From Gemmatimonadales bacterium (GTDB lineage Bacteria > Gemmatimonadota > Gemmatimonadetes > Gemmatimonadales > GWC2-71-9), in assembly GCA_036002045.1 (NCBI GenBank), contig DASYTT010000037.1, positions 39,608-103,607 of the forward strand: a stretch of 64,000 nucleotides of DNA, in the 5' to 3' direction. The stretch's first letter is position 1, and each line of letters begins with the position of its first letter. The translations under genes and the position numbers were made by a program. The notes beneath the pieces were generated by a model. The model had not been told where the DNA came from and made no database searches. It worked only from the letters and a program-made list of their open reading frames with translations. Shown in pieces: positions 4,911 to 54,069 of this stretch.

Positions 4911-4942
4911 CGGAGGGACGGAGGGACAGAGGGCCAGAGGGA
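4911..4942. repeat. Four tandem octamers C(G/A)GAGGG(A/C), which are Shine-Dalgarno-like
   Basis: Read directly: cggaggga cggaggga cagagggc cagaggga. The array begins 2 nt after the phoH stop (TAA 4906-4908) and ends 3 nt before GTG 4946. Confidence 0.85.
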
Positions 4943-4945
4943 CAG

Positions 4946-10137: not shown

Positions 10138-11798
10138 GCGCGAGCGAGGAGCTCGAGCGGTTGCGGGCCGAGGTCGCCGCCTGGCGGGCGCTCTACGCCG
10201 GGATACCGCAGCGAGCCGGCGTCGAGTTCACCTCGGTGTCCGGCCGCGAAGTGCAGCCGGTGTATACGCCGCTCGACCTGGAGCACCGCCTCGGCAGCCC
10301 GAGCGAGCTACCCGGGAGGTACCCGTTCACCCGCGGGATTCATCCCACGATGTATCGGGGCCGGCTCTGGACCATGCGCCAGTTCTCGGGGTTCGGAACC
10401 GCGGAAGACACCAACCAGCGCTACAAGTTTCTGCTGAGTCGCGGCCAGACCGGTCTCTCGGTGGCCTTCGATTTCCCGACCCTGATGGGTTACGACTCGG
10501 ATCATCCCCGCTCCGAAGGGGAAGTAGGCAAATGCGGGGTGGCGATCTCCAGCCTCAAAGACATGGAGGATCTGTTCGACGGCATTCCGCTCGACCAGGT
10601 CTCCACCTCGATGACGATCAACGGCCCCGCCGCCATACTGTTTTGCTTCTACGTGGCGGCGGCGGAGCGCCAGGGTGTCGACATCTCCCGCATCCAGGGA
10701 ACCGTGCAGAACGACATCCTCAAGGAATACATTGCGCAGCACGCCTGGATTTATCCGCCGGAGCCGGCGCTCAAGATCATCGTGGACATGTTCGAGTGGG
10801 CGGCCGAGCATACCCCGAGCTGGAACACGATTTCAATCTCCGGGTACCATATCCGCGAGGCGGGGGCGACGGCTGCGCAGGAGCTGGCCTTTACGCTGGC
10901 CGACGGCTTCTGCTACGTGGAGCACGGCATCGCCCGGGGCCTCGCGGTGGACCGCTTTGTCCCCCGGCTCTCGTTCTTCTGGGACGTGCACAACGATTTC
11001 TTCGAGGAAGTCGCGAAGCTCCGTGCCGCGCGGCGGATCTGGGCCCGGCACCTGCGGGAACGCTACGGCGCCCGCGACGAGCGAAGCTGGAAGATGCGCT
11101 TTCACTGCCAGACCGCCGGCGTGACGCTCACGGCGCAGCAGCCTGCCAATAACATCGTTCGGGTGGCCTACCAGGCGCTCGCGGCGGTGCTCGGCGGCGC
11201 GCAGTCACTGCACACCAATGCCCTCGATGAGACGCTCGCGCTCCCCACGGAGGAGTCCGTGCGGGTGGCGCTGCGCACCCAGCAAATCCTCGCGTACGAG
11301 ACCGGCGTCCCCAATGTCGCCGATCCGTTGGGCGGATCCTATTACGTCGAGGCCCTGACCGATGCGATGGAGCGCGAGGCGGAGGGACTCTTCGCCGAGA
11401 TCGAGGCGCAGGGCGGGGTGGTCGCGGCCATCGAATCGGGCTGGTTCCAGCGCCAGATCGCGCGAAGCGCCGCGCGATTCCAAGAGGAAGTCGAGCAGGG
11501 CCGCCGAGTGATCGTCGGCGTCAACGAGTGCATCGAGGACGCCGAAGGCCCGGTCGAGATTCTCCGCATTGGCGATGAAGCGGATCGCGCGCAGCGAGTC
11601 CGGCTGGCTCGGCTGCGGGCTGAACGGGACCCGGCCCGAGTCGAACGGAGCCTCGAAGCGCTGCGGACCACGGCGGCGGCCGATCGGAATGTGCTCCCCG
11701 CTATGCTGGATTGCGCGCGAGCATACTGTACGCTCTTCGAGATTCGCGAGGTGTTGGAACGCGTGTACGGAGCCTACCGCGAGCCGGTTTTCTTCTAG
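10134..11798 (+). CDS. B12-dependent acyl-CoA mutase, catalytic (large) subunit, methylmalonyl-CoA mutase family
   Basis: [28 protein letters not shown]...[13 protein letters not shown]...GVAISSL are signature blocks of the MCM/ICM TIM-barrel domain. No B12 domain is fused. Substrate is not resolved from sequence alone. Confidence 0.85.
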
Positions 11799-11805
11799 GA
11801 GCCCA

Positions 11806-12972
11806 ATGCCCTCCCGAGCACTCAGTGACGTGCGCCGCCAGCTGCAGCGGCTGGTGCGGCTGCAGCCCGGCAAGCACTGGATCGTGAGCTGCTATCTCAA
11901 GCTGGAACCGCGGGATCGCAGCCGCGGCAAGTACCTCATCAAGCTGAAGAACCGCACTCGCGAGGTCAGCGAGGCGCTGCCCGCCGAGGGCCTGACCCGG
12001 AGCGAGGCCGAACAGGTCCGGGAAGACCTTCGCCGCCTGCAGGCCATGCTGCAGCGTCCCGACGCCCTGCCGCCGACCCAGGGACTGGCGGTGTTCGTCT
12101 GCAAACCGCTCGACTTGTTCGAAGCCATTCCGCTGCCGCGAGTGCATCGCTCTCGGCTGTCGGTGGCACGCACTCCGCTGGTGCGCGAGCTCGCTGCGCT
12201 GGAGGACGAGGTGGGCCGCCTGCTTGCCGCCGTGCTCGACAAGAGCGGCGCGTCGCTCTACGAGGTGACCGCGTTCGAGGCACGCAAGCTGGAAGACCTT
12301 CCGGCCAGCACGCCCCGAGGCCACCGCTTTCATGGCGACCGGCACGATGCGCCCGGCAAGGGCGAGCAGGGCTATCACAACCGGCTCCGGCATGACCGCG
12401 AACAGTTACTTGCCGCGGTAGCCCAGCGGCTGTTCGATCTCGACCGCCAGGAGCCGGTGCGCGGGCTGGTGCTCGCCTCCGCGGGGAGCGAGGCGGATTC
12501 ACTGCGGATGTTCCTGCATCCCTACATCGCGGGTAAAGTTCTCGGCACTGCGCGGTTTGTGCGGCGCGGCGGAGCTTCGCTGGCCGAGCTGCACGGGATG
12601 GTGCTGGCGGTGCGCGAGAGCTTCGAGCGGAAGCTGGAGCGCCATCTGGTGGCGGAGATGCTGCTGGGCCAGGGATCCGGATGGGCCGTGAACGGGATCG
12701 CACCGACCCTCGATGCGCTCTCGCGCGGCCAGGTGCGCACGCTGCTGGTACGGGCGGATGCCAGCGTCCCGGGTTTCCGCTGCGCGGCGAGCGGGCGGCT
12801 CACCCTCAGCGCGAAGGAATGCCGGGGGCTCGGCGACGCGGCGCCGGTGCCCGACGTGATCGACGACGCGATCGAGGAAGCCCTCCGCCAGCGGCTCGAT
12901 CTGGACGTCGTCTTCGAGCCCGATGCCGCGGATACCATTAACGGGTTAGCGGCATTGTTGAGGTTCCGATAA
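11806..12972 (+). CDS. eRF1/Pelota-like (bacterial baeRF-type) release-factor-like protein
   Basis: 388 aa from ATG 11806 (AGGAG 5 nt upstream). The central loop HGDRHDAPGKGEQGYHNRLRHDR resembles eRF1 HGRGGQSALRFARLR, with GEQ in place of GGQ. The C-terminal block GWAVNGIAPTLDALSRGQVRTLLV is like the eRF1/Pelota domain 3. The upstream part of track ORF 11569 overlaps the mutase and is discarded. Confidence 0.55.
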   Translation: MPSRALSDVRRQLQRLVRLQPGKHWIVSCYLKLEPRDRSRGKYLIKLKNRTREVSEALPAEGLTRSEAEQVREDLRRLQAMLQRPDALPPTQGLAVFVCKPLDLFEAIPLPRVHRSRLSVARTPLVRELAALEDEVGRLLAAVLDKSGASLYEVTAFEARKLEDLPASTPRGHRFHGDRHDAPGKGEQGYHNRLRHDREQLLAAVAQRLFDLDRQEPVRGLVLASAGSEADSLRMFLHPYIAGKVLGTARFVRRGGASLAELHGMVLAVRESFERKLERHLVAEMLLGQGSGWAVNGIAPTLDALSRGQVRTLLVRADASVPGFRCAASGRLTLSAKECRGLGDAAPVPDVIDDAIEEALRQRLDLDVVFEPDAADTINGLAALLRFR

Positions 12973-13075
12973 GTGACAGGTGGCAGGTGGCAGGTGGCAG
13001 GTTGCAGGTGCACCCTCCGCCGCCGCCTACCCGCCACCTACCTGCCACCTGCCACCTGTCACCTGTCACCTGAGG
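12973..13075. repeat. Heptamer-array hairpin, element A (GTGGCAG / CCTGCCA units)
   Basis: The left arm holds 5-6 tandem heptamers and the right arm 5-6 complementary heptamers. I paired 12973-13002 with 13040-13069 base by base: 30 bp, made of 29 Watson-Crick pairs plus one G.T(U). It starts 1 nt after stop TAA 12970-12972. Its last unit overlaps the GAGGAG SD of the next gene. Confidence 0.9.
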
Positions 13076-28622: not shown

Positions 28623-30043
28623 CGTCCGACTCCCGGCGCGGTCTGGCCGATGTTGAAGTCCGTCTTGTACTGATGCTTGGGGTCGAGCCGATCGAACACC
28701 AGCCAACCTTCGTTCCAGACTTTCTCCGCCTTGGAATAAACCGAAAAAGGATCCCCGGACCACAGCACCACGTCGGCCTGCTTGCCGGCTTCGAGCGTTC
28801 CGGTAAGCTGCTCTATGCCGAGCACCCAGGCAGGATTCGCGGTGATCCAGCGGATCGCCTGGTCCCGGGTGAGCGGGATTCCGGCGCGCACCCCGGCGTA
28901 GTAGGCCTTGGCCATGTCCTGATTCATGCGCTGGATGCCGTCCGGGCTATCGGTGTGAATGACCGCGCGGGCCCCCGCGCGGGTGACCAGCGGTGCGTTC
29001 TCGAGGATCTGATCGAACGCTTCCATCTTGAAGCCGCCCCAATCGGACCAGACGGACGCGGCCGTGCCATTGGCGGCGAGGAGGTCCGCCACCTTGTAGG
29101 CTTCGATGGCGTGGTGGAAGGAGCGGATCTTGAATCCGAATTCCTTCGCCAGATCCAGCATCTGGGCCATTTCATCGCCGCGATAGCAGTGGTTCTGGAC
29201 GGAGATCTCGCCGCGCAGCACGCCGGCAAGCGTCTCCATTCGGAGATCCCGCGCCGGCGGATCGCCCTTCTTTTCCTTGAGCCATTTGTCCCAGCGACTG
29301 CGGTACTGCTCGGCCTGGATGAAGGCGGCGCGATAGCCTGCCATGTTGCCCATCCGGGTCGAGGGACCGCGACTCTGATAGACCCGCTTGGGATTCTCTC
29401 CGCACGCCAGCTTTACCCCGTAGGGAGCACCGGGGAACTTCATCTCCTGTACGGTGCGCGCGGGCACCAGCCGGACCGTCGCCGAGCGCCCCCCGACGAG
29501 GTTGGCGGAGCCCGGCAGCACCTGCATGACGGTGACGCCGCCCGCAATTGCGAGCGGGATTTGCGGATCCTGCGGCCAGATCGAATGCTCGGCCCAGACT
29601 TCCGCGGTGACCGGATTGGTCGCCTCATTGCCGTCGCTCTCGGCCGCGGTTCCGGGCGCGGCGTAGACGCCGAGATGGCTATGGGTGTCGATGATCCCCG
29701 GCGTGACGAATTTGCCGGTGCCATCCACGACCTGGGCGTCGGTCGGCGCCGCCACGCTGGTACCGATCGCCACCACCTTGCCGTCGCGAAAAAGGACGGA
29801 GGCGTTGGGAAGCTCCTCGCCGGCGCCCGTCAGCACCGTGGCGTTGCGGATCAGCACTGGCGGGTTAGGCCGGCGCCGGTAGGTCGAAGGATACTGGGGC
29901 CGGTCGGAGCTCAGAGTGTCTTGCGTGGTCGCCACGGGCGTGGCCGGCGAGCCGGGGGCAGGGGCGGGTGCGGCCGGCGCCGGGCGTTGAGCCGCCGTAG
30001 GGGCGCAAGCGGCAAGCAGGCCAGCGAAATACAGTCGTCGCAT
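28619..30043 (-). CDS. Amidohydrolase-family metallo-hydrolase, lipoprotein/secreted
   Basis: HxH motif (IDTHSHLG), plus later His (VQNHCY) and VIHTDSPDG blocks. N-terminus MRRLYFAGLLAACA. Confidence 0.8.
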   Translation of the reverse strand: MRRLYFAGLLAACAPTAAQRPAPAAPAPAPGSPATPVATTQDTLSSDRPQYPSTYRRRPNPPVLIRNATVLTGAGEELPNASVLFRDGKVVAIGTSVAAPTDAQVVDGTGKFVTPGIIDTHSHLGVYAAPGTAAESDGNEATNPVTAEVWAEHSIWPQDPQIPLAIAGGVTVMQVLPGSANLVGGRSATVRLVPARTVQEMKFPGAPYGVKLACGENPKRVYQSRGPSTRMGNMAGYRAAFIQAEQYRSRWDKWLKEKKGDPPARDLRMETLAGVLRGEISVQNHCYRGDEMAQMLDLAKEFGFKIRSFHHAIEAYKVADLLAANGTAASVWSDWGGFKMEAFDQILENAPLVTRAGARAVIHTDSPDGIQRMNQDMAKAYYAGVRAGIPLTRDQAIRWITANPAWVLGIEQLTGTLEAGKQADVVLWSGDPFSVYSKAEKVWNEGWLVFDRLDPKHQYKTDFNIGQTAPGVGR

Positions 30044-42918: not shown

Positions 42919-44387
42919 CTCGCCAGGAAGGAGAGGCGCTCGTCCTGCACGAGGATCGCTATTTCGATCCCGACTCCGAAGTGCGGCGCATTGCCCGCGA
43001 GCTGTACGCCTCCACCCGTGGGCTGCCAATCGTCTCTCCGCACGGACACGTCGACCCGGCGCTGCTGGCGGAGAACGCGCCGTTTCCGGAGCCCACCGCC
43101 CTCCTCGTCACGCCCGATCACTACATCCATCGCCTGCTGTACTCCCGCGGCGTGTCGCTCGAGTTGCTGGGGATCCCGCGCCGGGACGGCACCCCGGTCG
43201 AGGCAGATCCCCGCCGAGTCTGGCAGCGGTTTGCCGCGCATTACCACCTCTTCGCCGCGACACCCACGGGAGCCTGGCTCGATCACCAGCTGCACGAACT
43301 TTTCGGCGTTCGGCAACGACTGGGGCCCGAGACCGCGGTGCGGATCTACGACCAGATCACCGAGCGACTGCGCTCCCCGGAGTTTCTCCCGCGCGCCCTG
43401 TTCGAACGCTTCAACCTCGAGGTGCTGGCGACCACCGACGGGGCGGCGGATTCGCTGGAGCATCATGCGGCGATAGCGGCGTCGGGCTGGCCAGGCCTGG
43501 TGATTCCCACCTTCCGGCCCGATGCGGTGTTCCGGCTGGCCGACGCGGGATGGCAGCGGGCGCTCTCCGCCCTTGCCGCAGTGTCGGGCTCGGCGATCGA
43601 CAGCTACGCGGCGCTGCTCAGCGCGCTGGAATCGAGGCGCCGTTTCTTCAAACGGCTGGGCGCCACCGCCACCGATCACGCCGCCCTGGAGCCCTACACC
43701 GCGATCCTGGCAAGGGAGGAAGCCGAGCGACTCTTCCAACGTGGCTTGCGGGCTGAGGCAACCCTGGAGGACCAGCGGCGCTTCGAGGCCGCACTGCTCT
43801 TCGAAATGGCCCGCATGTCGCTCAACGACGGACTGGTGATGCAGCTCCACGCGGGCGCCTTTCGGAATCACAACCAGCAGCTTTACGAGCGCTTCGGTCC
43901 CGACCGAGGCGGTGACATCCCCGTGGTCACGGAATGGACCCGCAACCTCCGGCCCCTGCTCAACGCGTTCGGCAATGACGACCGTTTCACGCTCATTCTC
44001 TTCACGCTGGACGAATCGGGTTACAGCCGGGAGCTGGCACCGCTGGCCGGCCATTATCCGGCGGTGCGCCTGGGCCCGCCCTGGTGGTTCCACGACTCGA
44101 TCGAGGGCATGACCCGCTTTCGGGAAGCAACCAGCGAGACCGCCGGCATTCACAACACGGTGGGCTTCAATGACGATACTCGCGCCTTCTGCTCGATTCC
44201 GGCGCGACACGATCTCTCACGACGGGTTGACGCCAACTGGCTGGCGCGGCTGGTTGCGCGGCATGTGATCTCGAGCAAAGAGGCCCAGGCGCTGGCACGC
44301 GCGCTCGCCTATGAGCTGGCCAAAGAGGCCTATCGGCTGGAGGCGCGCCCCTCGGGAACCCTCGTCGCCGGAGAGGTACCGCCTTAG
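42915..44387 (+). CDS. uxaC: Glucuronate (uronate) isomerase
   Basis: LPIVSPHGHVDP, the HLD-type amidohydrolase-fold blocks and WWF.DS are typical of UxaC. Start provisionally GTG 42915 (GTGA overlap); ATG 42900 is also possible. Confidence 0.75.
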   Translation: MTRQEGEALVLHEDRYFDPDSEVRRIARELYASTRGLPIVSPHGHVDPALLAENAPFPEPTALLVTPDHYIHRLLYSRGVSLELLGIPRRDGTPVEADPRRVWQRFAAHYHLFAATPTGAWLDHQLHELFGVRQRLGPETAVRIYDQITERLRSPEFLPRALFERFNLEVLATTDGAADSLEHHAAIAASGWPGLVIPTFRPDAVFRLADAGWQRALSALAAVSGSAIDSYAALLSALESRRRFFKRLGATATDHAALEPYTAILAREEAERLFQRGLRAEATLEDQRRFEAALLFEMARMSLNDGLVMQLHAGAFRNHNQQLYERFGPDRGGDIPVVTEWTRNLRPLLNAFGNDDRFTLILFTLDESGYSRELAPLAGHYPAVRLGPPWWFHDSIEGMTRFREATSETAGIHNTVGFNDDTRAFCSIPARHDLSRRVDANWLARLVARHVISSKEAQALARALAYELAKEAYRLEARPSGTLVAGEVPP

Positions 44388-44398
44388 ACTTAAGGCCG

Positions 44399-44481
44399 GC
44401 CCGAGTGGCGGAATGGCAGACGCAGCGGACTCAAAATCCGCCGGGGGCAACCCCGTGCGAGTTCGACTCTCGCCTCGGGCA
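44399..44481 (+). tRNA. tRNA-Leu (anticodon CAA), type II with a long variable arm
   Basis: I folded the cloverleaf by hand. Acceptor GCCCGAG/CTCGGGC, anticodon stem GCGGA/TCCGC with loop CT-CAA-AA, variable arm CGGGGGCAACCCCGT, T arm GCGAG-TTCGACT-CTCGC, discriminator A. No CCA is encoded. Confidence 0.9.
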
Positions 44482-44485
44482 TGGT

Positions 44486-44595
44486 GGCTATGGGCTATGG
44501 GCTATGGGCTGTTGGTCGAAAAAACGTTGTTGCGAGCACTGGAACCCGAGCTACAAGGAGCAGCCGATAGCCCATAGCCCATAGCTCATAGCTCC
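44486..44595. repeat. Heptamer-array hairpin, element C (GGCTATG / TAGCCCA units)
   Basis: Left arm is GGCTATG x3 plus GGCTGTT at 44486-44513. Right arm is CAGCCGA TAGCCCA TAGCCCA TAGCTCA TAGCTCC at 44561-44595. Positions 44491-44511 pair with 44561-44581 (21 bp, one mismatch). The loop is about 49 nt. The element starts 5 nt after the tRNA 3' end. Confidence 0.9.
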
Positions 44596-44625
44596 ATTAC
44601 GTTCCGTCCTTTCCACCCCGACTCA

Positions 44626-46101
44626 ATGCTCGAAACCCAAGTCATTTCCGCGGCACCTGAGGCGCATGCTACGCCGCTCCTCATCGTCGTGGTGCCTCAG
44701 GGAGGACAGCTCGGATCGCTCACGGCCCTCGACCAGGCCAGCCAGGGCGCGATCACCCGCTGCTACGCTGCGGGAGACTTCGTCGGCAAGAAGGACGAGA
44801 CGGCGTTGCTCTATCCGGAAGGACCCCGCCCTCGCCTGCTATTGGTCGGAATCGGTTCGACCGAGGACCGCCGCTCCGCGATTCGCCGCGCAGCGGCGAT
44901 CGGGTCAAAGCGCGCTCGCACGCTCGGGGTGGGTAGCGCCGCCTTGTTCGTCACGCCGGAGGCGCTCGGCACGCTCTCAGCGCGCGAGCTCGGGCAGGTC
45001 GTCGCGGAGGGGGTGGCCCTGGGCGGCTGGCACTTTGCGGAGCTCAAGCAGCCGCCCGAAGACCAGAAGCCGCCGTTCGAACGGATGGAGCTGCTCGCGA
45101 CCCTGAGCCCGGATGAGGTGCGCGAGGGCCATCGCGTCGGCGCCGCAATTTCCGCGGGGCACCTCTTCTGCCGGGGACTCCAGGTATTGCCGGGCAATCA
45201 CCTCCCGCCGCGGAAGCTCGCGGAAGCGGCGGTGGAGCTGGCTCGGCGGCACGGTCACACGATCTCCATTCTGGACAAGGCGGGCATCGAGCAGGAAGGC
45301 ATGGGAGCCCTCCTCGCGGTGGCGCAGGGAAGCGCCGAAGAACCGCGCTTCATTGCGATCGAGTACCACGGCAGCGAGGGGGCGCCTGTCGTACTGGTCG
45401 GCAAAGGCGTCTCGTTCGATACGGGTGGGATCTCCATCAAGCCGGCGCAGGGCATGGAGGACATGAAATACGACATGTCCGGGGCGGCGGCGGTCCTGGG
45501 CACCTTCGAGATGCTGGGCAAGCTGCGGCCCAAGCTCAAGGTCATCGGGCTGATTCCTTCCGCGGAGAACATGCCTTCCGCGAGCGCCATCAAGCCGGGG
45601 GACGTGGTGAAGAGTCACCTCGGCAAGTTCATCGAGATCGTCAATACCGATGCAGAGGGCCGCTTGCTGCTCGCCGATGCGCTCTCTTATGCGCGCCGCT
45701 ACACCCCGGCCTGCGCGATCGATATCGCGACGCTGACCGGCGCCATCACCATCGGGCTGGGGCATACGGCGGCCGGTCTCATGGGCACCGATGCCGCGCT
45801 GATCCGGGATCTGCTGGCGGCGGGGCAGCGGGCCAACGAGCGTGCCTGGGAGCTGCCGCTGTGGGAGGAATACCGCGAGCTCAACAAGTCGGACATCGCC
45901 GACGTGAAGAACACCGGAGGCCGGGCAGCCGGGAGCATCAGCGCGGGCTGGTTCCTGCGCGAATTCGTGGATGGCTTCCCCTGGGCGCACCTGGATATCG
46001 CGGGAACCGCCTACACCGAGCGCGAGGATGCCGCGATGGTGAAGGGGCCGACCGGGATGGGTGTCCGACTCTTCAGCGAGTTTCTCCTCGCCCGAGTGTG
46101 A
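44626..46101 (+). CDS. pepA: Leucyl aminopeptidase (M17)
   Basis: M17 blocks VGKGVSFDTGGISIKP, NTDAEGRL and TLTGA. Confidence 0.9.
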   Translation: MLETQVISAAPEAHATPLLIVVVPQGGQLGSLTALDQASQGAITRCYAAGDFVGKKDETALLYPEGPRPRLLLVGIGSTEDRRSAIRRAAAIGSKRARTLGVGSAALFVTPEALGTLSARELGQVVAEGVALGGWHFAELKQPPEDQKPPFERMELLATLSPDEVREGHRVGAAISAGHLFCRGLQVLPGNHLPPRKLAEAAVELARRHGHTISILDKAGIEQEGMGALLAVAQGSAEEPRFIAIEYHGSEGAPVVLVGKGVSFDTGGISIKPAQGMEDMKYDMSGAAAVLGTFEMLGKLRPKLKVIGLIPSAENMPSASAIKPGDVVKSHLGKFIEIVNTDAEGRLLLADALSYARRYTPACAIDIATLTGAITIGLGHTAAGLMGTDAALIRDLLAAGQRANERAWELPLWEEYRELNKSDIADVKNTGGRAAGSISAGWFLREFVDGFPWAHLDIAGTAYTEREDAAMVKGPTGMGVRLFSEFLLARV

Positions 46102-47981
46102 GCCGCGCCCTCTTCGCGGCGGCGCTGCTGTTCGCCGCGGGGGTCGCCCGGCTCGAGGCGCAAGTGGTCGATACCACCCGGGCGGATTCGCTGGCCCGGG
46201 CCGACACGACCGATTACACGGCGCTCTTCCTCAAGTCTCAACAAGAATCCAAGCGACTCATTCCCGTCGCCCCGCGGATCGGCGCAGCGACCCTGCTGCC
46301 GCCGGGCAGCCGCATGGTTCTGGATCGGGATTCCATCCTGTGGCACGGGGCGGAAACCGTGAGCGACCTGCTGACCCGCGTACCGGGAGTCTATTTGCTG
46401 CGAGGGGGCTGGGCGGGCCGTCCCGAGCTGCCGGCCTTTCAGGCCCACGGCGCCACCTCGGTGAGCTACGTGCTGGACGGCTTTCCCATCGTCCCGCTGG
46501 GGCAGGACAGTGTGATGGTCGACCCGTCCCTGCTGCCGCTCAGCTTCCTCGATCGGATCGAGATCGAGCGGATTCCCGGGCAGCTTAAGGTGTGGCTCTT
46601 CACGCGGCGCAACGATCGCAGCGCGCCGTACAGCAGCATCGGCATCGCCAGCGGGGATTTGCAGATAGCGCGCTACCAAGGCCAGCTGGAGAAGCGCAGC
46701 GCAAGAGGACCGGGCGTGGCACTGGCGTTCGACCATTTCGACGTGCCTGCGCAGCAGGGACAGCTGGGGAACTACGGGAACACGCAGGCCTGGATCAGGC
46801 TGGAGTATCTGCGCAACGCGCACGCCGGCGCCGAGCTGCAATTCTTCCGCAACTCGCCCGAGCGCGAGCCGGTTCTCACAGAGGGCTCGACGGGAGATAC
46901 GCTGAGCCGCGCCCGCTCGGGGACCCGCGGCGACCTCACCGCGCGGATCTTCCTGGCACCGGGCGACAATGGACTCGGGCCGAGTCTGGACGTCCTGGCG
47001 AGTCGCTCGAGCTGGACCGACGATATCGAGAAGGACTCGACGCGCATTATCGCCGATGTGCTCGACTCCCTGGGGAACGTGACGGGCCAGGACACCAGCT
47101 ACCAAATCGACAAGCATCATCGCGCGGTGACCCAGCTCGGAGCGGTGGCGGGTTACCGGCTGCCCGCCGCCTGGCTCGTCGGCACGCTCTTCTGGCGCTC
47201 GGCCTGGACGCCGTTGGATTTGAGAGTGCAGGGCGCCGTGTCGCCCTTCTCCCGCATCACGCTGAGCGCGGACGCGGTCTATCTGCGGCACGAAGCATCC
47301 CGTCACAGCCAATGGCTTACGGCGCGCGCCGGGCTCCTGCTCCCGCTGGGTTTCGCGGCGAGCGCCGTCTGGCGCAGGGGCAGCGAGGTCACGGTCCCGG
47401 CCATTCGCGCCGATTCGGCGCAGACGGTCGACGACCGCAGCGTGAGCCTCGCCTGGCGGACCTCTTTCGCCGAGCTGGAAGGGACCTTTTCCAGCAACGC
47501 AGGGTTTCAGCCCACCGGCTACGCGCAGTATCCGGCATTGGTGAGCCTGGCTCCCAGCGGCAGAACCAATTGGCTGAGCCTGAGCGGACGCATTGCCCCG
47601 CGTCAATGGCTCAGTGTGAGCGGATGGTACAACACGCCACGGGCTCCGCGCCCTGAAGGACAGCCGCCCGGCCACGCGCTGGTGCACGCCACCATCCAAA
47701 GCAAGTTTCTTCCGACCTTCAAGAGCGGGATCTTCAACCTGAAGCTGCAAGTGAGTCTCGAGCGCTGGGGTGCCGGGATTCTGGGGCGCGATAGCACCGG
47801 AACCGAGCTGACCCTGCCGGCGGCGACCTTCTATCGTGGCTACATCGGACTCCAGCTCGGCAGGTTTACCGCCTACTACGACCGCTACAACATGCAGGGG
47901 AGCACATTCAGCTATGTGCCCGGGCTGCCCATCCCGAAGTACGTGAGCACCTTTGGGGTGCGCTGGGAGTTCGCTAACTGA
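46098..47981 (+). CDS. Outer-membrane beta-barrel protein with a TonB-dependent-receptor plug-like N-terminal domain
   Basis: Start at GTG 46098 (GTGA overlap with pepA). Signal peptide. Plug-like block TVSDLLTRVPGVYL...SYVLDGFPI...IERIEIERIPG. The long C-terminal part has alternating (beta-strand-like) residues and ends RWEFAN. Confidence 0.55.
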   Translation: MSRALFAAALLFAAGVARLEAQVVDTTRADSLARADTTDYTALFLKSQQESKRLIPVAPRIGAATLLPPGSRMVLDRDSILWHGAETVSDLLTRVPGVYLLRGGWAGRPELPAFQAHGATSVSYVLDGFPIVPLGQDSVMVDPSLLPLSFLDRIEIERIPGQLKVWLFTRRNDRSAPYSSIGIASGDLQIARYQGQLEKRSARGPGVALAFDHFDVPAQQGQLGNYGNTQAWIRLEYLRNAHAGAELQFFRNSPEREPVLTEGSTGDTLSRARSGTRGDLTARIFLAPGDNGLGPSLDVLASRSSWTDDIEKDSTRIIADVLDSLGNVTGQDTSYQIDKHHRAVTQLGAVAGYRLPAAWLVGTLFWRSAWTPLDLRVQGAVSPFSRITLSADAVYLRHEASRHSQWLTARAGLLLPLGFAASAVWRRGSEVTVPAIRADSAQTVDDRSVSLAWRTSFAELEGTFSSNAGFQPTGYAQYPALVSLAPSGRTNWLSLSGRIAPRQWLSVSGWYNTPRAPRPEGQPPGHALVHATIQSKFLPTFKSGIFNLKLQVSLERWGAGILGRDSTGTELTLPAATFYRGYIGLQLGRFTAYYDRYNMQGSTFSYVPGLPIPKYVSTFGVRWEFAN

Positions 47982-47983
47982 AA

Positions 47984-48062
47984 GGTGGCAGGTGGCAGGT
48001 GGCAGGTGGCAGGGAGGTGGTAGCACCTGCAACCTGCAACCTGCAACCTGCGACCTGCAACC
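47984..48062. repeat. Heptamer-array hairpin, element B (GGTGGCA / CCTGCAA units)
   Basis: Left arm is GGTGGCA x4 at 47984-48011. Right arm is CCTGCAA x3, CCTGCGA, CCTGCAA at 48026-48060. The apex is GGTG-GTAG-CACC. The arms are complementary 6 of 7 per unit. It starts 2 nt after stop TGA 47979-47981. Positions 47983-48007 are identical to 12978-13002. Confidence 0.9.
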
Positions 48063-48072
48063 ATTATCTTTC

Positions 48073-48957
48073 ATGGCTATGCCGCTGAGCATGACGGGCT
48101 TTGGTGCAGCCGAGGGATCGGTCGCTGGCGGAGTACTTCGGGTAGAAATCCGGAGTGTGAACCATCGATTCTTTCATCTGGCCGCGAAGCTGCCCGGCGA
48201 CCTGGGGGCGTTTGAGATAGACTTGCGCGACCGGCTGCGCCGGGAATTCGAGCGGGGGCATTTGGCGGTGCAGATCCGCTGGAGCAGCGCGCCCACCGCG
48301 GCGGTGGGAACCCTGGCGGTCAATGCGGAGCGGGCACGGGAGGCAGCGGGGCGGCTCCGGGAGCTGCAGGTGGCGGCGGGGCTAAGCGGCGAGATTCCGC
48401 TCGACCTCATCGCGCGACAGCCCGATGTCTTCGTGGCCTCGGACGCGGAGACCAGCGCGGCCCAGTGGGGCGAACTGGAGCCGATCGTGGCCAGTGCCGC
48501 CGCGCAATGCAGGGAAGCGCGGCTGCGTGAAGGCTCCGTGCTGGCCGGCGAGCTGTGCGGGCTGCTCGCGACGATCCGCCACGAGGCGGAACGAGTTGCC
48601 GGACGCGCCCCGGAGCGACTGATCCACGAGCGGGAGCGCATTCGCAAGGTGGTGACCGAGCTGCTTGACGGGCGGGCGGTCGACGAACAGCGCCTCGCGC
48701 AGGAGATCGCGTTTCTGGCGGAGCGGATCGACATCAACGAGGAGCTGGTGCGGCTGCGAGCCCACCTGGACGCCTGCCTGGAAGCGCTGGGGAGTGACGC
48801 ACCGGTCGGCAAGCGGTTGGGCTTTCTGGCGCAGGAGCTCGGTCGCGAGATCAATACCATCGGGTCAAAGGCGAACGACACCGCGATGCAGCATGCCGTC
48901 GTCGCCATGAAGGGAGAGCTGGAGCGATTCCGGGAACAGCTCGAGAACTTGGAGTAG
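48073..48957 (+). CDS. yicC: YicC-family stress-induced protein / endoribonuclease
   Basis: N-terminal SMTGFG, the RSVNHRF block and C-terminal EINTIGSKAND...K.ELE..REQ.QN.E. Start is ATG 48073; 48079 or 48091 are also possible. Confidence 0.8.
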   Translation: MAMPLSMTGFGAAEGSVAGGVLRVEIRSVNHRFFHLAAKLPGDLGAFEIDLRDRLRREFERGHLAVQIRWSSAPTAAVGTLAVNAERAREAAGRLRELQVAAGLSGEIPLDLIARQPDVFVASDAETSAAQWGELEPIVASAAAQCREARLREGSVLAGELCGLLATIRHEAERVAGRAPERLIHERERIRKVVTELLDGRAVDEQRLAQEIAFLAERIDINEELVRLRAHLDACLEALGSDAPVGKRLGFLAQELGREINTIGSKANDTAMQHAVVAMKGELERFREQLENLE

Positions 48958-48971
48958 CGCCGTTCCTGCTC

Positions 48972-49598
48972 GTGCTTTCCTCGCCATCCGGGGGCGGGAA
49001 ATCCACGATTGCGCGTCATCTCCTCGAAGCGCGCGAGGACGTGACCTATTCGGTGTCGGCTACGACCCGGCCGATCCGCAATGGGGAGGAAGACGGCCGG
49101 CACTATCACTATCTCTCGCGCGCGGAGTTCTCGCGGCGCGCCGACGCGGGAGAGTTTGTCGAGTGGGCGGAGTACGGCGGGAACCTGTACGGCACGCTTC
49201 GCTCGGAGGTCGAGCGCGGGCTCTGCGCGGGGCGCCACGTGGTCCTCGACATCGACGTGGAGGGCGCGCGACAGGTCCGCGAGCAATACCCGGATTCGGT
49301 GCACGTATTCGTCTTGCCGCCTTCCGCCGCAGTGCTCGTGCAGCGGCTGCGGACGCGGAACACCGAGGACCTCGCGGCCATCGAGCGACGCATCGGCATC
49401 GCCGCCGGCGAGCTGCGCGCCGCGAAGGACTATGATTACGTCGTCGTCAACGACGATTTCGTCGAAGCCGTGGCGCACGTTGCGGCGATTCTCGATGTGG
49501 AAGCGCGTCGCCTGCGCCGGCTGACCAATCTCGCGGAAGTCATCGACAACCTGCAGCAGGATCTTGCCGGATTGCAGCAAAAGCTGCGCAAGGAGTAA
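48972..49598 (+). CDS. gmk: Guanylate kinase
   Basis: P-loop SSPSGGGKST and SATTRP.R.GE.DG..Y.F. Conserved yicC-gmk-rpoZ order. Confidence 0.9.
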   Translation: MLSSPSGGGKSTIARHLLEAREDVTYSVSATTRPIRNGEEDGRHYHYLSRAEFSRRADAGEFVEWAEYGGNLYGTLRSEVERGLCAGRHVVLDIDVEGARQVREQYPDSVHVFVLPPSAAVLVQRLRTRNTEDLAAIERRIGIAAGELRAAKDYDYVVVNDDFVEAVAHVAAILDVEARRLRRLTNLAEVIDNLQQDLAGLQQKLRKE

Positions 49599-49601
49599 AC
49601 G

Positions 49602-49829
49602 ATGGAGATCTTTACGCCGACCGACGCCGCGCGCAACGCCGGCACCAAGTACCGGTCCATCTTGGTCGCCGCGCGGTTCGCGCGGTATCTGAACGAGTTC
49701 CCCAAGGATCGCCAGGTCCAATGGGCCGAGAATGAACGCGCCATGAAGCTGACGACGCTTTCCATGCGTAAGCTCGTCTCCGGCGAGTTGAATTTCCGCG
49801 AGCTCAGGCGCCGCCGCTCCGAAGTCTGA
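49602..49829 (+). CDS. rpoZ: Probable RNA polymerase omega subunit (divergent)
   Basis: 75 aa immediately after gmk. The core KYRSILVAARFARYL resembles the omega NRY.LV..AAKRARQL helix. Assignment rests largely on synteny. Confidence 0.5.
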   Translation: MEIFTPTDAARNAGTKYRSILVAARFARYLNEFPKDRQVQWAENERAMKLTTLSMRKLVSGELNFRELRRRRSEV

Positions 49830-49839
49830 GACCCGCCGC

Positions 49840-50652
49840 GTGAGCGATTCGCGGCGCCGCTACCTGGCCATCCAGCGCGAGCTGGGCGGGAACGAGGTCA
49901 TTCTCTCGGCTCCGCTCGGCAGGTCAGTCGGTGAGGACGGCGAGGTCAGTGCGGTCAGTGAGGTCGGTGAGGTCAGTTCTCCGTCCCCACCGTCCTCACC
50001 GTCCTCACCGCCCAACTGGCGTCGCGGCGCCCCCCCGATTCCCGACACGCCCGGCCTTAGCGTCGTTGCCCCGCCGCGTGGCCTGATGGACCCGCCGCCG
50101 GAGTGGAACACCCTCGAGGAAGTCAGCAGCGCGATCGCGGTCTGCCGCAGCTGCTTTCTGTGCGAGGGCCGTACCCGGACGGTGCCGGGAGAGGGAAGCC
50201 CGCGCGCCGAACTGCTGTTCGTCGGAGAGGGGCCCGGTCAGGTCGAGGATGCGACCGGGCGGCCGTTCGTGGGACGAGCCGGGGAGCTGCTCACCCAGAT
50301 CATCGAGGCCATCGGACTGCGTCGCGAGGATGTTTTCATCGCGAATGCCGTCAAGTGCCGTCCGCCGCAGAATCGCAAGCCGCTGCCCGACGAGCTCGCC
50401 GCCTGCTGGCGCTACCTCGAGCGCCAAATCGAGCTGCTGCGCCCCAAAGTGATCGTCGCCCTGGGTGCAACCGCGGCCGAAACTCTGCTCCAGGTCCGGC
50501 GGAGTCTCGCGGAACTGCGCGGCAGAGTACATTCTTACCGTGGCATCCCGCTGGTGGTGACCTATCACCCGGCGGCCCTCCTCCGCAACCCGAATTGGAA
50601 GAAGCCGACCTGGGATGACATCCGTATCGCCCGACAGCTTCTCGACCGTTGA
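49840..50652 (+). CDS. Uracil-DNA glycosylase, family 4 (Fe-S type) with an N-terminal extension
   Basis: C..C.LC, GEG.P.AELLFVGEGPG..ED..G.PFVG.AG.LL and HP..LLR blocks. The N-terminal roughly 90 aa include the repeat-encoded segment. Confidence 0.8.
   Translation: MSDSRRRYLAIQRELGGNEVILSAPLGRSVGEDGEVSAVSEVGEVSSPSPPSSPSSPPNWRRGAPPIPDTPGLSVVAPPRGLMDPPPEWNTLEEVSSAIAVCRSCFLCEGRTRTVPGEGSPRAELLFVGEGPGQVEDATGRPFVGRAGELLTQIIEAIGLRREDVFIANAVKCRPPQNRKPLPDELAACWRYLERQIELLRPKVIVALGATAAETLLQVRRSLAELRGRVHSYRGIPLVVTYHPAALLRNPNWKKPTWDDIRIARQLLDR
49921..50012. repeat. 9-mer-array inverted repeat, element E, in frame inside udg
   Basis: Left arm is GAGGTCAGT GCGGTCAGT GAGGTCGGT GAGGTCAGT, preceded by GGTGAGGACGG. 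Right arm is CCGTCCCCA CCGTCCTCA CCGTCCTCA CCG. GGTGAGGACGG (49930-49940) is exactly complementary to CCGTCCTCACC (49990-50000 and 49999-50009). It translates as RSVGEDGEVSAVSEVGEVSSPSPPSSPSSPP. Confidence 0.85.
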
Positions 50653-52006
50653 ACAATCGCTCCGGGCCGCTCCCTGGAGCCCGGAGGCGGAGCAGGCGGT
50701 GCTGGGCGCGATGCTGCTCGACCAGGACGCCGCGCTCAGGGCCGCGGAGCTGCTGGACTATGGGATGTTCTACCGCGAGGCGCATCGGCGGCTCTTCCGC
50801 GCGATGGTCGCGCTGACCGAGCAGCGGATCGTCATCGACCACATCACCCTGCGCGACGAGCTGCTCCGCCGCAACGAGCTCGAAGCGGCCGGCGGGATCG
50901 AATACCTCGCGGAGCTGGTGGACGTGGTGGCGACCCCGGCCAACCTCGAGCATCACGCGCGGATCCTGCGCGAAAAATCCATTCTCCGCCGCCTGATCGA
51001 GGCCTCTACCGGGATCATCCAGCAGGCTTACGACGGCCGGCTCGGGGCCAACGAGCAGCTCGACGAAGCCGAGGGGCGGATTTTCCGGATCTCCCAGGAG
51101 CGCCGCCAGGACGGCTTTACCCGCATCAAGGAAATGCTCTGGCCGACGATGGAGCGGATAGAAATGCTCCATCGCAGCGGCACAACGGTTACCGGAGTTC
51201 CCAGCGGATTCACAGATTTGGATGGATTGACGTCGGGCTTTCAACGCTCCGAGCTGATCATCGTGGCGGCGCGGCCCTCGATGGGGAAGACGGCGTTCTG
51301 CCTCAACATCGCGACCAACGCGGCCCACAAGGGCACCGGAGTCGCCATTTTCTCGCTGGAAATGTCGAAGGATGCGCTGGTGCAACGGATGCTCTGTGCG
51401 GAGGCATTGATCGACAGCCAGGCGGTACGCCAGGGGCGCATCAAGGACTCGGATTATCCCAAGCTGGCCCGGGCGTCCGGCATCCTGCAGCAGTGTCCCA
51501 TCTGGATCGACGACACGCCCGCGCTCACGCTGCTGGAAATGCGCGGCAAGGCCCGGCGGCTGCGGGCCGAGGTGGAAGTCGGCATGATCATCGTGGACTA
51601 TCTGCAGCTGATGCGCAGTCCCGAATACGCCGAAAACCGAGTCCAGGAAATCTCGGATATTTCTCGCTCGCTCAAGGCACTGGCCCGCGAGCTGCAGATC
51701 CCGGTGCTGGCGCTCTCGCAGCTGTCCCGGGCGTCAGAGCAGCGAGGCGGCGGCAAGGAGCCGATGCTCTCCGATCTGCGCGACTCCGGCGCCATCGAGC
51801 AGGACGCCGATATCGTGATTTTCATTCATCGTCCCGAGATGTACAAGGATCTGCGCGAGAAGGCCGAAAACGCGGGGACCAACATCGAGGGGCTGGCCGA
51901 AATCCACCTCGCCAAGCATCGCAACGGTCCCACCGGGAACCTCAAACTGCATTTCCACAAGCAGTTCACCCGCTTCGACAGCCACTCCGAGCGCGAGGCG
52001 ACCTGA
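50615..52006 (+). CDS. dnaB: Replicative DNA helicase DnaB
   Basis: PEAEQAVLGAMLLD N-terminal motif, Walker A ARPSMGKTAF, and the IIVDYLQLM and LSQLSR blocks. Confidence 0.9.
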   Translation: MTSVSPDSFSTVEQSLRAAPWSPEAEQAVLGAMLLDQDAALRAAELLDYGMFYREAHRRLFRAMVALTEQRIVIDHITLRDELLRRNELEAAGGIEYLAELVDVVATPANLEHHARILREKSILRRLIEASTGIIQQAYDGRLGANEQLDEAEGRIFRISQERRQDGFTRIKEMLWPTMERIEMLHRSGTTVTGVPSGFTDLDGLTSGFQRSELIIVAARPSMGKTAFCLNIATNAAHKGTGVAIFSLEMSKDALVQRMLCAEALIDSQAVRQGRIKDSDYPKLARASGILQQCPIWIDDTPALTLLEMRGKARRLRAEVEVGMIIVDYLQLMRSPEYAENRVQEISDISRSLKALARELQIPVLALSQLSRASEQRGGGKEPMLSDLRDSGAIEQDADIVIFIHRPEMYKDLREKAENAGTNIEGLAEIHLAKHRNGPTGNLKLHFHKQFTRFDSHSEREAT

Positions 52007-52007
52007 G

Positions 52008-53378
52008 GTGGCTCGCGGCCGCTCGGTCTATCGCTGCGCCGAGTGCGGCCACGATCACCCCAAGTGGGCAGGGCGCTGCGAGGCTTGTGGTGAGTGGAAT
52101 ACGGTGGCGGAGGAGCCGGTCTCGGTCGGTCGGACGGTCGGACGGTCGGGCGGTCGGTCAAAAGCCTTACCGACCTCCCCGACCTCACCGACACCACTGT
52201 CCGACGTTCAGGAATCCCGCCTGGTTCGCTGGACGACCGGAATTCCTGAATTCGATTTCGTGATCGGTGGGGGCATCGTCCCCGGCTCGATGGCCTTGAT
52301 CGGCGGCGAGCCGGGCATCGGCAAGTCCACGCTGCTGCTGCAAACCGCGGCGAGGTTGCGCGCTCAGGGTCGCCACGTGCTGTATGCGAGCGGCGAGGAG
52401 TCCCCCGAGCAGATTCGTCTCCGCGCCGATCGCCTGGTGGAGGACGCCGGGCCGGTGCTGGTCCTGGGGGAGACCCGGCTAGAGGAAATCGTCGCGGCAG
52501 CCCGCTCCACCGGCGCCGAGCTGCTGGTGCTCGACTCGATCCAGACTGTCTACACCGACGAGCTTGAGGGCGCTCCCGGCAGCGTCGGTCAGGTGCGCGA
52601 ATGTGCCGCGCGGCTGATGCGTTTCGCCAAGGAGAGTGGCACCGCCGTCTTCGTGGTGGGCCACGTGACCAAGGGCGGGGCCATCGCGGGTCCGAAGACG
52701 CTGGAGCACATCGCGGACACCGTGCTCTACTTCGAAGGCGAGGGATCGCTCGACTACCGGCTGCTGCGCGCCACCAAGAACCGCTTCGGCTCCGTGGATG
52801 AGCTGGGGGTCTTCTCCATGTCCGAGCGAGGGCTCTCCGCCGTGGCCAACCCTTCCGCGGTGTTTCTTGCCGCGCGTTCCGCAAGCAGCACCGGGAGCGC
52901 GGTCACCGCGCTCATGGAAGGCACCCGACCGGTCCTGGTCGAAGTGCAGGCGCTCGCCGCCCCTTCGGGCTACGGCACTCCCCAACGGGTAGCCACTGGG
53001 CTCGATCCCAAACGGCTGGCGGTGCTGCTCGCGGTGCTCGAGCGGCGGGGTGGGGCGAGCTTTGCGCAGCTGGATGTCTTCGTGCAGGTCACCGCCGGCG
53101 TGCGGCTTCGCGAACCCGGAGCGGATCTGGCCGTGGCGGCCGCGCTGCTCTCCAGTCTCCATGGCCGGCCGACTCCAGCCGACTCGCTTTACCTGGGAGA
53201 AATCGGGCTCGGCGGGGAAATCCGCCCCATCGGGGGCCTGGAGCGCCGGCTGGCCGAAGCGGGCAGGCTGGGCTTCCGCCGGGCCTTCGGATCGTCGCGC
53301 CAGGGCTCGGAGATCCCCGGACTTCGGCACATTCCGCTCTCCCATGTCGACGAGCTGGTCCGCGCCCTTGCCGCTTGA
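52008..53378 (+). CDS. radA: DNA repair protein RadA/Sms
   Basis: C4 zinc finger (YRCAECGHDHPKWAGRCEACGEW), Walker A GEPGIGKSTLLLQ, KNRFG motif and a Lon-like C-terminal domain. Confidence 0.9.
   Translation: MARGRSVYRCAECGHDHPKWAGRCEACGEWNTVAEEPVSVGRTVGRSGGRSKALPTSPTSPTPLSDVQESRLVRWTTGIPEFDFVIGGGIVPGSMALIGGEPGIGKSTLLLQTAARLRAQGRHVLYASGEESPEQIRLRADRLVEDAGPVLVLGETRLEEIVAAARSTGAELLVLDSIQTVYTDELEGAPGSVGQVRECAARLMRFAKESGTAVFVVGHVTKGGAIAGPKTLEHIADTVLYFEGEGSLDYRLLRATKNRFGSVDELGVFSMSERGLSAVANPSAVFLAARSASSTGSAVTALMEGTRPVLVEVQALAAPSGYGTPQRVATGLDPKRLAVLLAVLERRGGASFAQLDVFVQVTAGVRLREPGADLAVAAALLSSLHGRPTPADSLYLGEIGLGGEIRPIGGLERRLAEAGRLGFRRAFGSSRQGSEIPGLRHIPLSHVDELVRALAA
52117..52197. repeat. GGTC-rich / CCGACC-rich inverted repeat array, element F, in frame inside the radA linker
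   Basis: Left arm is CGGTC TCGGTC GGTC GGACGGTC GGACGGTC GGGCGGTC GGTC at 52117-52159. The loop is CAAAAGCCTT. Right arm is CCGACCTCC CCGACCTCA CCGACACCA at 52170-52196. GGTCGGT (52152-52158) pairs with ACCGACC (52169-52175), and GGTCGGG (52144-52150) pairs with CCCGACC (52178-52184). It translates as VSVGRTVGRSGGRSKALPTSPTSPTP. Confidence 0.8.
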
Positions 53379-54069
53379 TGTTGGGGTAGTCCTCGCCGCC
53401 GCCGGCCGGGGAGAGCGCTGCGGCGATCCGCCGAAGCAGTTCCGCTCTCTCGCGGGAGCACCGTTGCTCCTGCACGCGCTGCGTCCCTTCCTGTCCCATC
53501 CCGCGGTGGCCCTTGTCAGTGTCGTCCTGCCCGAGGAGCAGGCCGCCGCACCACCGGATTGGCTGGCGGAGCTGGTGGGCGAGCGTCTCCGGGTGGTTGC
53601 CGGTGGCACAACACGGATGGATTCCGTCGCCGCCGGGCTCCGCGTGCTCCCGGTTTCGTGCTCGATCGTCCTCGTCCACGATGGCGCGCGGCCTTTTCCG
53701 GAGGCGGTGGTGATCGATGCGGTAATCGCGCAGGCCCGGCGGGGAGTCGGGGCCATTGCGGCGGTGCCGCTGTACGACACGCTGAAGGAAGCCGGGCCTA
53801 TCGAAAGCGATACACCGCCGCCGGTGCTGCGCACCCTCTCCCGCACCGCCGTCTGGCGCGCGCAAACCCCGCAGGCTTTTCCGAGAGCGTTGCTGGAAGC
53901 GGCCTACGCCACTGCCCGAGCGGAGGGCTTTGCCGCGACCGACGACGCGGAGCTGGTCGAGCGAAGCGGAGGAACGGTGGTCCTGGTGCGTGACGTGAGC
54001 TCTAATCTCAAAGTCACGACTCCCGAGGACTTCCGAGTGGCGGAGGCACTCGCTCGCATCGCACGATGA
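53344..54069 (+). CDS. ispD: 2-C-methyl-D-erythritol 4-phosphate cytidylyltransferase
   Basis: VVLAAAGRGERCG (the P-loop-like AAG.G.R), VLVHDGARP and the DTLK block. Start is ATG 53344 (overlaps radA) or TTG 53368. Confidence 0.8.
   Translation: MSTSWSAPLPLDVGVVLAAAGRGERCGDPPKQFRSLAGAPLLLHALRPFLSHPAVALVSVVLPEEQAAAPPDWLAELVGERLRVVAGGTTRMDSVAAGLRVLPVSCSIVLVHDGARPFPEAVVIDAVIAQARRGVGAIAAVPLYDTLKEAGPIESDTPPPVLRTLSRTAVWRAQTPQAFPRALLEAAYATARAEGFAATDDAELVERSGGTVVLVRDVSSNLKVTTPEDFRVAEALARIAR

Follow-up and report, generated by a model that had tools for sequence, protein, structure and literature searches.

The gene radA in the 64,000-nucleotide stretch of Gemmatimonadales contig DASYTT010000037.1 analysed here (the window) carries a self-complementary repeat segment between the codons for its zinc ribbon and those for its ATPase domain. 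This segment is probably a coding-region instance of a lineage-wide class of repeats, in which a G-rich tandem array of 7-10-nt units is followed by a short spacer and a roughly reverse-complementary C-rich array, and we consider it rather likely that it represents a repeat module of DNA-level origin that is tolerated in a flexible RadA tether. Turnover of the radA linker far outpaces that of the remaining gene, and both this linker and a linker in the nearby gene udg are conserved hot spots, i.e. sites that hold different units in different genomes. The window RadA (P0137) is identical to NCBI HEV8598465.1 from a Gemmatimonadales metagenome-assembled genome (MAG), is matched by Streptococcus pneumoniae RadA (5LKM) over aa 1-429 (E 2.5e-121) and contains the Pfam domains Zn_ribbon (aa 8-35), AAA_25/RecA-like (76-224) and Lon_C (351-426). 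The repeat segment corresponds to residues 38-63, after the zinc ribbon and before the ATPase domain, which starts from about residue 70. The zinc-finger domain of RadA is unresolved in both crystal and cryo-electron microscopy structures, where it is called highly flexible (PMC11612176).

The earlier note on this DNA, made from the letters alone, had described an array, a 10-nt loop, further repeats and two 7-bp helices in this segment; all of these are confirmed, both helices being exact (table 1), and the linker translation given there, VSVGRTVGRSGGRSKALPTSPTSPTP, is correct. Tandem Repeats Finder reports the left array with period 4, 9.5 copies and 82% matches. It contains three 17-nt copies at 8-nt spacing, its longest perfect runs being 3 x GGTC and about 2 x GGACGGTC, and it falls within radA codons 39-51 with a unit length that is not a multiple of three. 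The loop is followed by (CCGACCTCN)3, and the repeat finder assigns a 9-nt array, CCTCACCGA x3.1, to 52165-52192. The array clearly exceeds chance: its period-8 run score is 20, whereas none of 574 control windows of the same length, taken from the rest of radA at 52 loci, reaches at least 12. The hairpin does so only modestly, with a minimum free energy (MFE) of -48.1 kcal/mol that corresponds to z -2.35 against dinucleotide shuffles and to z -1.38 against recodings of the same peptide with the genome's codon usage, 9% of which are as stable. G-quadruplex-aware folding of the left arm with ViennaRNA gave no G-quadruplex in the MFE structure, and the array has only GG runs. No such hairpin was found in the nearest relatives (L081, L083, L084, L087, L088, L089 and L001, all with z of at least 0), and of 48 linkers examined, only 7 have a z below -2. 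What is conserved is thus the slippage-type G-rich array in a permissive spacer and not the hairpin.

Table 1. Positions in the window of the repeat elements and of the genes that contain or adjoin them (aa, amino acids; ORF, open reading frame; UDG, uracil-DNA glycosylase).
Feature	Position	Strand	Details
G-rich left array (GGTC/GGACGGTC)	52122..52159	+	4-nt unit, 8-nt super-period, about 4.5 octamers
Loop CAAAAGCCTT	52159..52168	+	10 nt; sequence, MFE structure
C-rich right array (CCGACCTCC CCGACCTCA CCGACACCA)	52170..52196	+	9-nt in-frame unit, PTS PTS PTP
Inner helix	52152-58 (GGTCGGT) with 52169-75 (ACCGACC)		exact 7 bp
Middle helix	52144-50 (GGTCGGG) with 52178-84 (CCCGACC)		exact 7 bp
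Predicted interrupted hairpin	52129..52205	+	outer stem 52129-52141 with 52188-52192 + 52198-52205
Hypervariable linker coding segment	52116..52214	+	aa 37-69, zinc ribbon to ATPase domain
Patch near-identical to L091	52095..52223	+	2 differences, gene positions 88-216
udg N-terminal linker element (GTCAGTGAG)x5.7 then (CCGTCCTCA)x3.3	49927..50010	+	RNA fold z -3.87
Intergenic module (GGTGGCA)n, loop, (ACCTGCC)n	12973..13072	+	-73.8 kcal/mol, z -8.7
Intergenic module (GGCTATG)n, 51-nt spacer, (AGCCCAT)n	44486..44597	+	z -8.8
Intergenic module (AGGTGGC)n, loop, (ACCTGCA)n	47983..48062	+	z -6.5; begins 2 nt past stop codon
radA/sms	52008..53378	+	456 aa; ORF
dnaB	50615..52006		directly upstream of radA
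udg (family-4 UDG-like gene)	49840..50652		upstream of dnaB and radA

An ortholog alignment of the RadA linker, proposed in the earlier note as a check, revealed a region that is hypervariable yet always in frame: 32 orthologs that are 75-91% identical show hardly any variation outside aa 38-62, whereas within this stretch they cannot be aligned. At this same place, different orthologs carry arrays of differing units (GTCGGGAA, GTCGGAAA, AGACGCAA, GGCGGAAC, GACGGGAG and GGGGCAGC), and close relatives share homologous GTCGGnnn arrays whose units have been made uniform inside each genome while varying from one genome to the next, as in concerted evolution. Period 8 is typical of the linkers, which have a mean period-8 run score of 7.8 as compared with 3.0 elsewhere in radA; scores of at least 12 occur in 17% of them, and 16 of 22 linker arrays have this period. 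As an 8-nt period is not a multiple of three, such an array must have been made and homogenised at the DNA level and not by selection on a peptide repeat. The speed of turnover is apparent from pairwise comparisons, in which a backbone identity of 0.94-0.97 goes along with a mean linker identity of 0.52, and even at backbone identities of at least 0.99 only 42% of pairs have linkers that are at least 90% identical. For backbones of 0.90-0.97, linker identity is 0.38 in the array-bearing family as against 0.71, and alignable, in an array-free sister clade. Several pairs (P0142/P0143, P0155/P0183, P0127/P0166 and P0109/P0110) combine identical or near-identical backbones with unrelated linkers. 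Array-bearing linkers are no longer than array-free ones.

The census behind the repeat class covered 709 kb, made up of the window and of 80 radA loci retrieved from genomes, all from one genomic neighbourhood, with arrays counted as paired if an inverted partner array was present within 110 nt. Among the 61 arrays found, in which periods 7 and 8 dominate, 37 (about 60%) have such a partner. Normalised to 10 kb, the window has 1.56 arrays and the family 1.20, as against 0.17 for the Gemmatimonadaceae-like sister clade and none for other phyla. The pairs also have a common polarity: 18 of 20 arms on the 5' side are rich in G, and 13 of 17 on the 3' side are rich in C. Three intergenic modules in the window are of the same build as the radA element and structurally stronger (table 1). 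For one of these, at 47983-48062, the orthologous spacer in L091 (L091 7-62), a locus from a genome about 86% identical, holds an unrelated 41-nt sequence in place of the module, which has therefore been recently gained or lost. Likewise, heptamer hairpins have been gained at the dnaB-radA junction of L019, L039, L033 and L057, with L034 and others being empty, so that filled and empty sites can be compared both for L039 versus L034 and for the window module at 47983-48062 versus L091.

Modules of this class are located immediately behind stop codons or tRNA ends and in the unconstrained linkers of udg and radA, and their units differ from site to site. The module at 12973-13072 extends from 1 nt past the stop codon of ORF 11569..12972 to the ribosome-binding site (GAGGAG) of the gene that follows, whereas that at 44486-44597 begins 5 nt past tRNA-Leu(CAA) (44399-44481). 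The G-rich arm of the latter has GGG runs at 4-nt spacing and thus G-quadruplex potential, and GGCTAAC and AGGCTAA heptamers related to its units are present in L049. The module at 47983-48062, flanked by a TonB-dependent-receptor-like gene and yicC, has a single G:A mismatch in each heptamer. The modules between dnaB stop and radA start (L039 3815-3995, L019 3885-3990, L033 3838-3990, L057 3840-3960) are independent of each other and use heptamer or octamer units such as AGTTCCG, GTCGGTCA and GGGGCGC. Unpaired arrays occur in the window at 4911-4945, (CGGAGGGA)x4, and at 28592-28624, (GATAGCT)x4, each abutting a gene 3' end; GATAGCT-type heptamers are also present in L047 and L087, between the sua5 and low-molecular-weight-phosphatase genes. 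A consensus terminator scan of 44000-54000 flagged no repeat module, and Rfam at gathering thresholds returned only tRNA for the whole window; with no terminator call and no Rfam family match, the intrinsic terminator or repetitive extragenic palindromic (REP)-type hairpin was rejected as a candidate.

The udg element occupies a comparable position. The N-terminal region of udg is coding, since the motifs RYLxxQxELGGxEV and WxKGAPPIPGPG flank its variable stretch in dozens of orthologs. This stretch holds arrays of period 4, 7, 8, 9, 10 or 12, depending on the genome, and arrays with units and periods other than those of the window occupy the site in L004, L005, L018, L033, L036, L038 and L048. 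The earlier note had pointed out a 12-mer shared in reverse complement between the radA right arm and udg, and this match (GTCGGTGAGGTC, at 49963-49974 on the + strand and 52181-52192 on the - strand) is real and non-random: with up to one mismatch there are 6 matches in the window, of which 5 lie in the radA and udg elements, against an expectation of 0.46. The 'inverse orientation' of the two elements that had been deduced from it, however, is not meaningful, because both are palindromic and share one polarity, in which the G-rich arm leads; the two right arms are similar in direct orientation (family D1), so that the one in radA is complementary to the udg left arm. More specifically, the radA right arm and the udg element have in common a family of 9-nt units, CCG[A/T]CC[T/C]CN. 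Members are present in the linkers of udg (window, L005, L087, L091) and of radA (window, L081, L091) and at a C-terminal radA site of L089. Judged by these shared units, the radA and udg elements are related, and the proposal that two repair genes carry related repeat structures in permissive linkers is borne out by the common 9-nt family and by the coding nature of the udg region.

Within this pattern of rapid change, a single pair of genomes stands out. L091 (P0142) and the window are 85.6% identical across radA, with flanks that are about 15% divergent, but share a near-identical patch that includes the linker (2 differences, table 1; Poisson P 3e-5). An unbroken identical run of 83 nt within it (52095-52177) is the longest in the 9.4-kb alignment of the two. 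At sites that differ between L093 (P0143) and the window, L091 sides with L093 by 116:7 upstream and 158:12 downstream, whereas at nt 99-214 it sides with the window by 55:0. The backbone of L091 is therefore of the L093 type, into which a patch of 105-130 nt brings a linker of the window type; short-patch homologous recombination through the conserved flanks seems the likely cause, with an assembly chimera as a caveat. L093 and L091, which are otherwise near-identical, are clearly divergent beyond about -750 nt from the radA start, i.e. in the 5' half of dnaB. This suggests a further recombination breakpoint in dnaB and that these genomes are generally mosaic.

How could such a segment arise and persist within a conserved gene? 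We envisage that the module would be born and homogenised by replication slippage or template switching, possibly with multi-unit insertions at stalled or broken forks, and that selection would filter only for in-frame, stop-free and hydrophilic products. The array would then be translated as a Gly/Arg/Ser/Val-rich and subsequently Pro/Thr/Ser-rich flexible tether for the mobile zinc-finger domain, and whole linker alleles may occasionally be swapped between lineages by recombination. The radA hairpin would thus be a by-product of the palindromic make-up of the module rather than a conserved regulatory structure or an on/off switch. A number of points weigh against this account. Between window and L091, no other 90-nt stretch of the 9.4-kb locus is as conserved as the linker, and in a single pair nucleotide-level selection would give the same conservation. 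The L092 linker has one compensatory pair and two G:U-preserving changes. Hairpins of unrelated sequence recur in about 10 orthologs, and those of L008, L036 and L038 exceed the expectation from their peptide. Simple slippage explains neither the strict G-first polarity nor intergenic modules that start 1-5 nt past stop codons, and the in-frame birth of 8-nt arrays is left without explanation. Finally, all data are MAG or metagenome consensus assemblies, which may mis-assemble repeats and hide minority variants.

Some of these points would fit a more elaborate scenario, to which we assign a low probability, in which the G-first/C-second hairpins are footprints of a dedicated lineage-specific process and the linkers are exchanged as hypervariable cassettes under diversifying selection or biased gene conversion. 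Break or fork repair might here add G-rich units to both 3' ends before rejoining them, much like a head-to-head fusion of telomere-like ends. The polarity, the 1-5-nt spacing from stop codons, the in-frame birth of 8-nt arrays with several units at a time and the transfer of a 105-130-nt patch are all compatible with such a process but do not demonstrate it. If it were real, two DNA-repair proteins would carry a fast-evolving and horizontally shuffled module.

All other explanations have some support, but the evidence against each of them is stronger. It is unlikely that only the protein matters, i.e. that an Arg/Gly-rich and then Pro/Thr/Ser-rich tether is selected and that complementarity is a by-product of the pairing of GGN/CGN codons with NCC/NCG codons in a genome of 67% GC. 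The same peptide when recoded does keep most of the folding energy (-40.7 +/- 5.0 vs -47.6 kcal/mol), and the right arm is an in-frame PTS repeat; yet period 8 is linker-specific and not a multiple of three, the same architecture is found in non-coding spacers, units are homogenised at the nucleotide level and the array-free sister clade keeps an alignable linker. Distinctly unlikely, too, is a functional nucleic-acid structure, i.e. an mRNA or DNA hairpin selected for ribosome pausing between domains, for stability of the dnaB-radA transcript or for factor binding. The near-identity of the window and L091 linkers (2 nt differ) amid 15% flank divergence and the structure-preserving changes in L092 speak for it, as do the orthologs, about ten in all, in which an added complementary C-rich arm generates a hairpin at the same site, with z -3 to -8 against codon-order shuffles in L002, L008, L027, L033, L036, L038 and L048 and weaker ones in L018 and L030. 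Most close relatives, however, are devoid of the hairpin and several are less structured than random, the window hairpin is largely implied by its peptide, and the recombinant patch accounts for the conservation in L091. In addition, no Rfam family matches, and covariation analysis, in which only 4 sequences were alignable, found 1 compensatory pair and a positive, i.e. unfavourable, alifold covariation term.

A mobile palindromic element, resembling a MITE (miniature inverted-repeat transposable element) or a Rickettsia palindromic element (RPE) and inserted in frame into radA and udg, would account for the filled and empty sites of the intergenic modules, for the recurrence of units (GGTGGCA at 12977 and 47983, the CCGNCCTCN family at three sites in two genes) and for the likeness of an in-frame palindrome to RPEs (PMC10969869). 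This we regard as very unlikely and have rejected, since there is no shared consensus core, with loops being unrelated and units varying by site, since neither terminal inverted repeats nor target-site duplications were seen at the filled/empty junctions, and since arrays do not lengthen the linkers that bear them. Highly improbable, finally, is the contingency locus that the earlier note had put forward, in which slippage by 8 nt (or 4 nt) would frameshift radA and reversibly switch recombination repair in subpopulations. In its favour are the unit length, the very fast linker turnover and the family-wide maintenance of period 8 at a coding site, where tolerance of frame-neutral slippage alone would lead one to expect periods of 3n. 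Known phase-variable tracts, however, are long and near-perfect, whereas the radA tract has only about 4.5 imperfect octamers and at most 2-3 perfect copies. Neither the 88 loci nor 170 full-length proteins included a frameshifted radA, although rare frameshifted subpopulations could escape detection in consensus assemblies, and the window, L091 and L092, three assemblies with this element type, have linkers of equal length. Pattern scans of a metagenome contig collection, in which the relevant samples are not included, yielded no length variants from the same species. Absence of length heterogeneity together with conservation of the same sequence in distant relatives had been named as evidence for ordinary coding constraint, and here the outcome is mixed: heterogeneity between near-identical backbones is abundant, but it consists of whole in-frame linker alleles, exchanged like cassettes, and not of frameshifts by unit number. 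The N-terminally truncated RadA clusters P0049, P0061, P0074 and P0082 were considered as OFF alleles and rejected, as the zinc finger is in frame in 6 of 6 contigs. As it lies in the same frame, these truncated calls are gene-caller start errors at the dnaB-stop/radA-start junction; in the public gene calls of L085-L090, radA starts 120-190 nt too far downstream, which omits an intact in-frame zinc finger.

The radA start codon is GTG and lies 1 nt past the dnaB stop, and the two genes abut or overlap in the window and in most relatives. The 3' end of udg overlaps the start of dnaB by 38 nt (50615-50652, within 50560-50690), and in the comparison of window and L091 this dual-coding stretch ranks second in conservation at the locus. 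RadA has a second variable spot in its C-terminal region, ahead of the last helix (window aa ~430-445), where some orthologs (P0032, P0046, P0058) contain the repeat insertions AETASRRDAETS and EPPRRSDSEPPRRPD; in L089, this C-terminal site carries a 9-nt array of the CCGACCTCA family (3676-3721).

With a DNA-level module tolerated in the RadA tether as the preferred reading, some bacterial lineages would make abundant self-complementary short-unit modules that can enter housekeeping proteins wherever a flexible tether permits, the outcome being a hypervariable, recombining segment within an otherwise 85-95% conserved repair gene. In practical terms, this accounts for start-codon miscalls, contig breaks and 'hypervariable' regions in the annotation of Gemmatimonadales radA and udg, and it removes the tempting but unsupported claim of a phase-variable recombination-repair gene. 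Furthermore, these modules provide a tractable natural system for studying whether paired G-rich/C-rich arrays originate by slippage, template switching or break repair.

Full-text literature searches yielded no description of such modules in Gemmatimonadota, but partial parallels exist in other bacteria. Like the contingency simple sequence repeats (SSRs) of Haemophilus and Neisseria (PMC2651432), the radA array is a short-unit repeat of non-3n length inside a reading frame; unlike these, its copies are few and imperfect and no frameshifted alleles were seen, and it resides in a housekeeping repair helicase rather than in a surface or restriction-modification gene. With RPEs it shares palindromic DNA that is translated within a conserved protein at a permissive site, but RPEs are mobile, dispersed copies of about 150 bp that belong to defined consensus families (PMC10969869), whereas the Gemmatimonadales modules consist of site-specific tandem units without a shared core that evolve in situ. 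Cyanobacterial short tandemly repeated repetitive (STRR) sequences and the TAACTGA heptamers of Beggiatoaceae (PMC4679880) are similarly abundant, lineage-restricted intergenic tandem heptamers; these, however, nearly always consist of direct arrays without a partner, built from one or a few consensus units, and have not been reported inside conserved genes.

The closest precedent is provided by the convergent inverted heptamer pairs of Xanthomonas. There, GGGAATC heptamer SSRs form 70-75 convergent opposite-strand array pairs per genome that are capable of folding into stem-loops (Rehm et al. 2015, PMC4692102), with positions conserved between relatives, variable length and sequence, and a function that is unknown (PMC4692102). 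The radA element, with its G-rich array at 52122-52159 and convergent C-rich array at 52170-52196, follows the same plan, and its class likewise has G-rich units of about 7 nt. In contrast to the single Xanthomonas consensus, many units of 7-10 nt coexist in Gemmatimonadales, and most of these have GG instead of GGG runs and therefore a weaker G-quadruplex potential. Moreover, while the Xanthomonas pairs are intergenic, as are the other three modules in the window, those in radA and udg are located in frame inside the linkers of housekeeping proteins.

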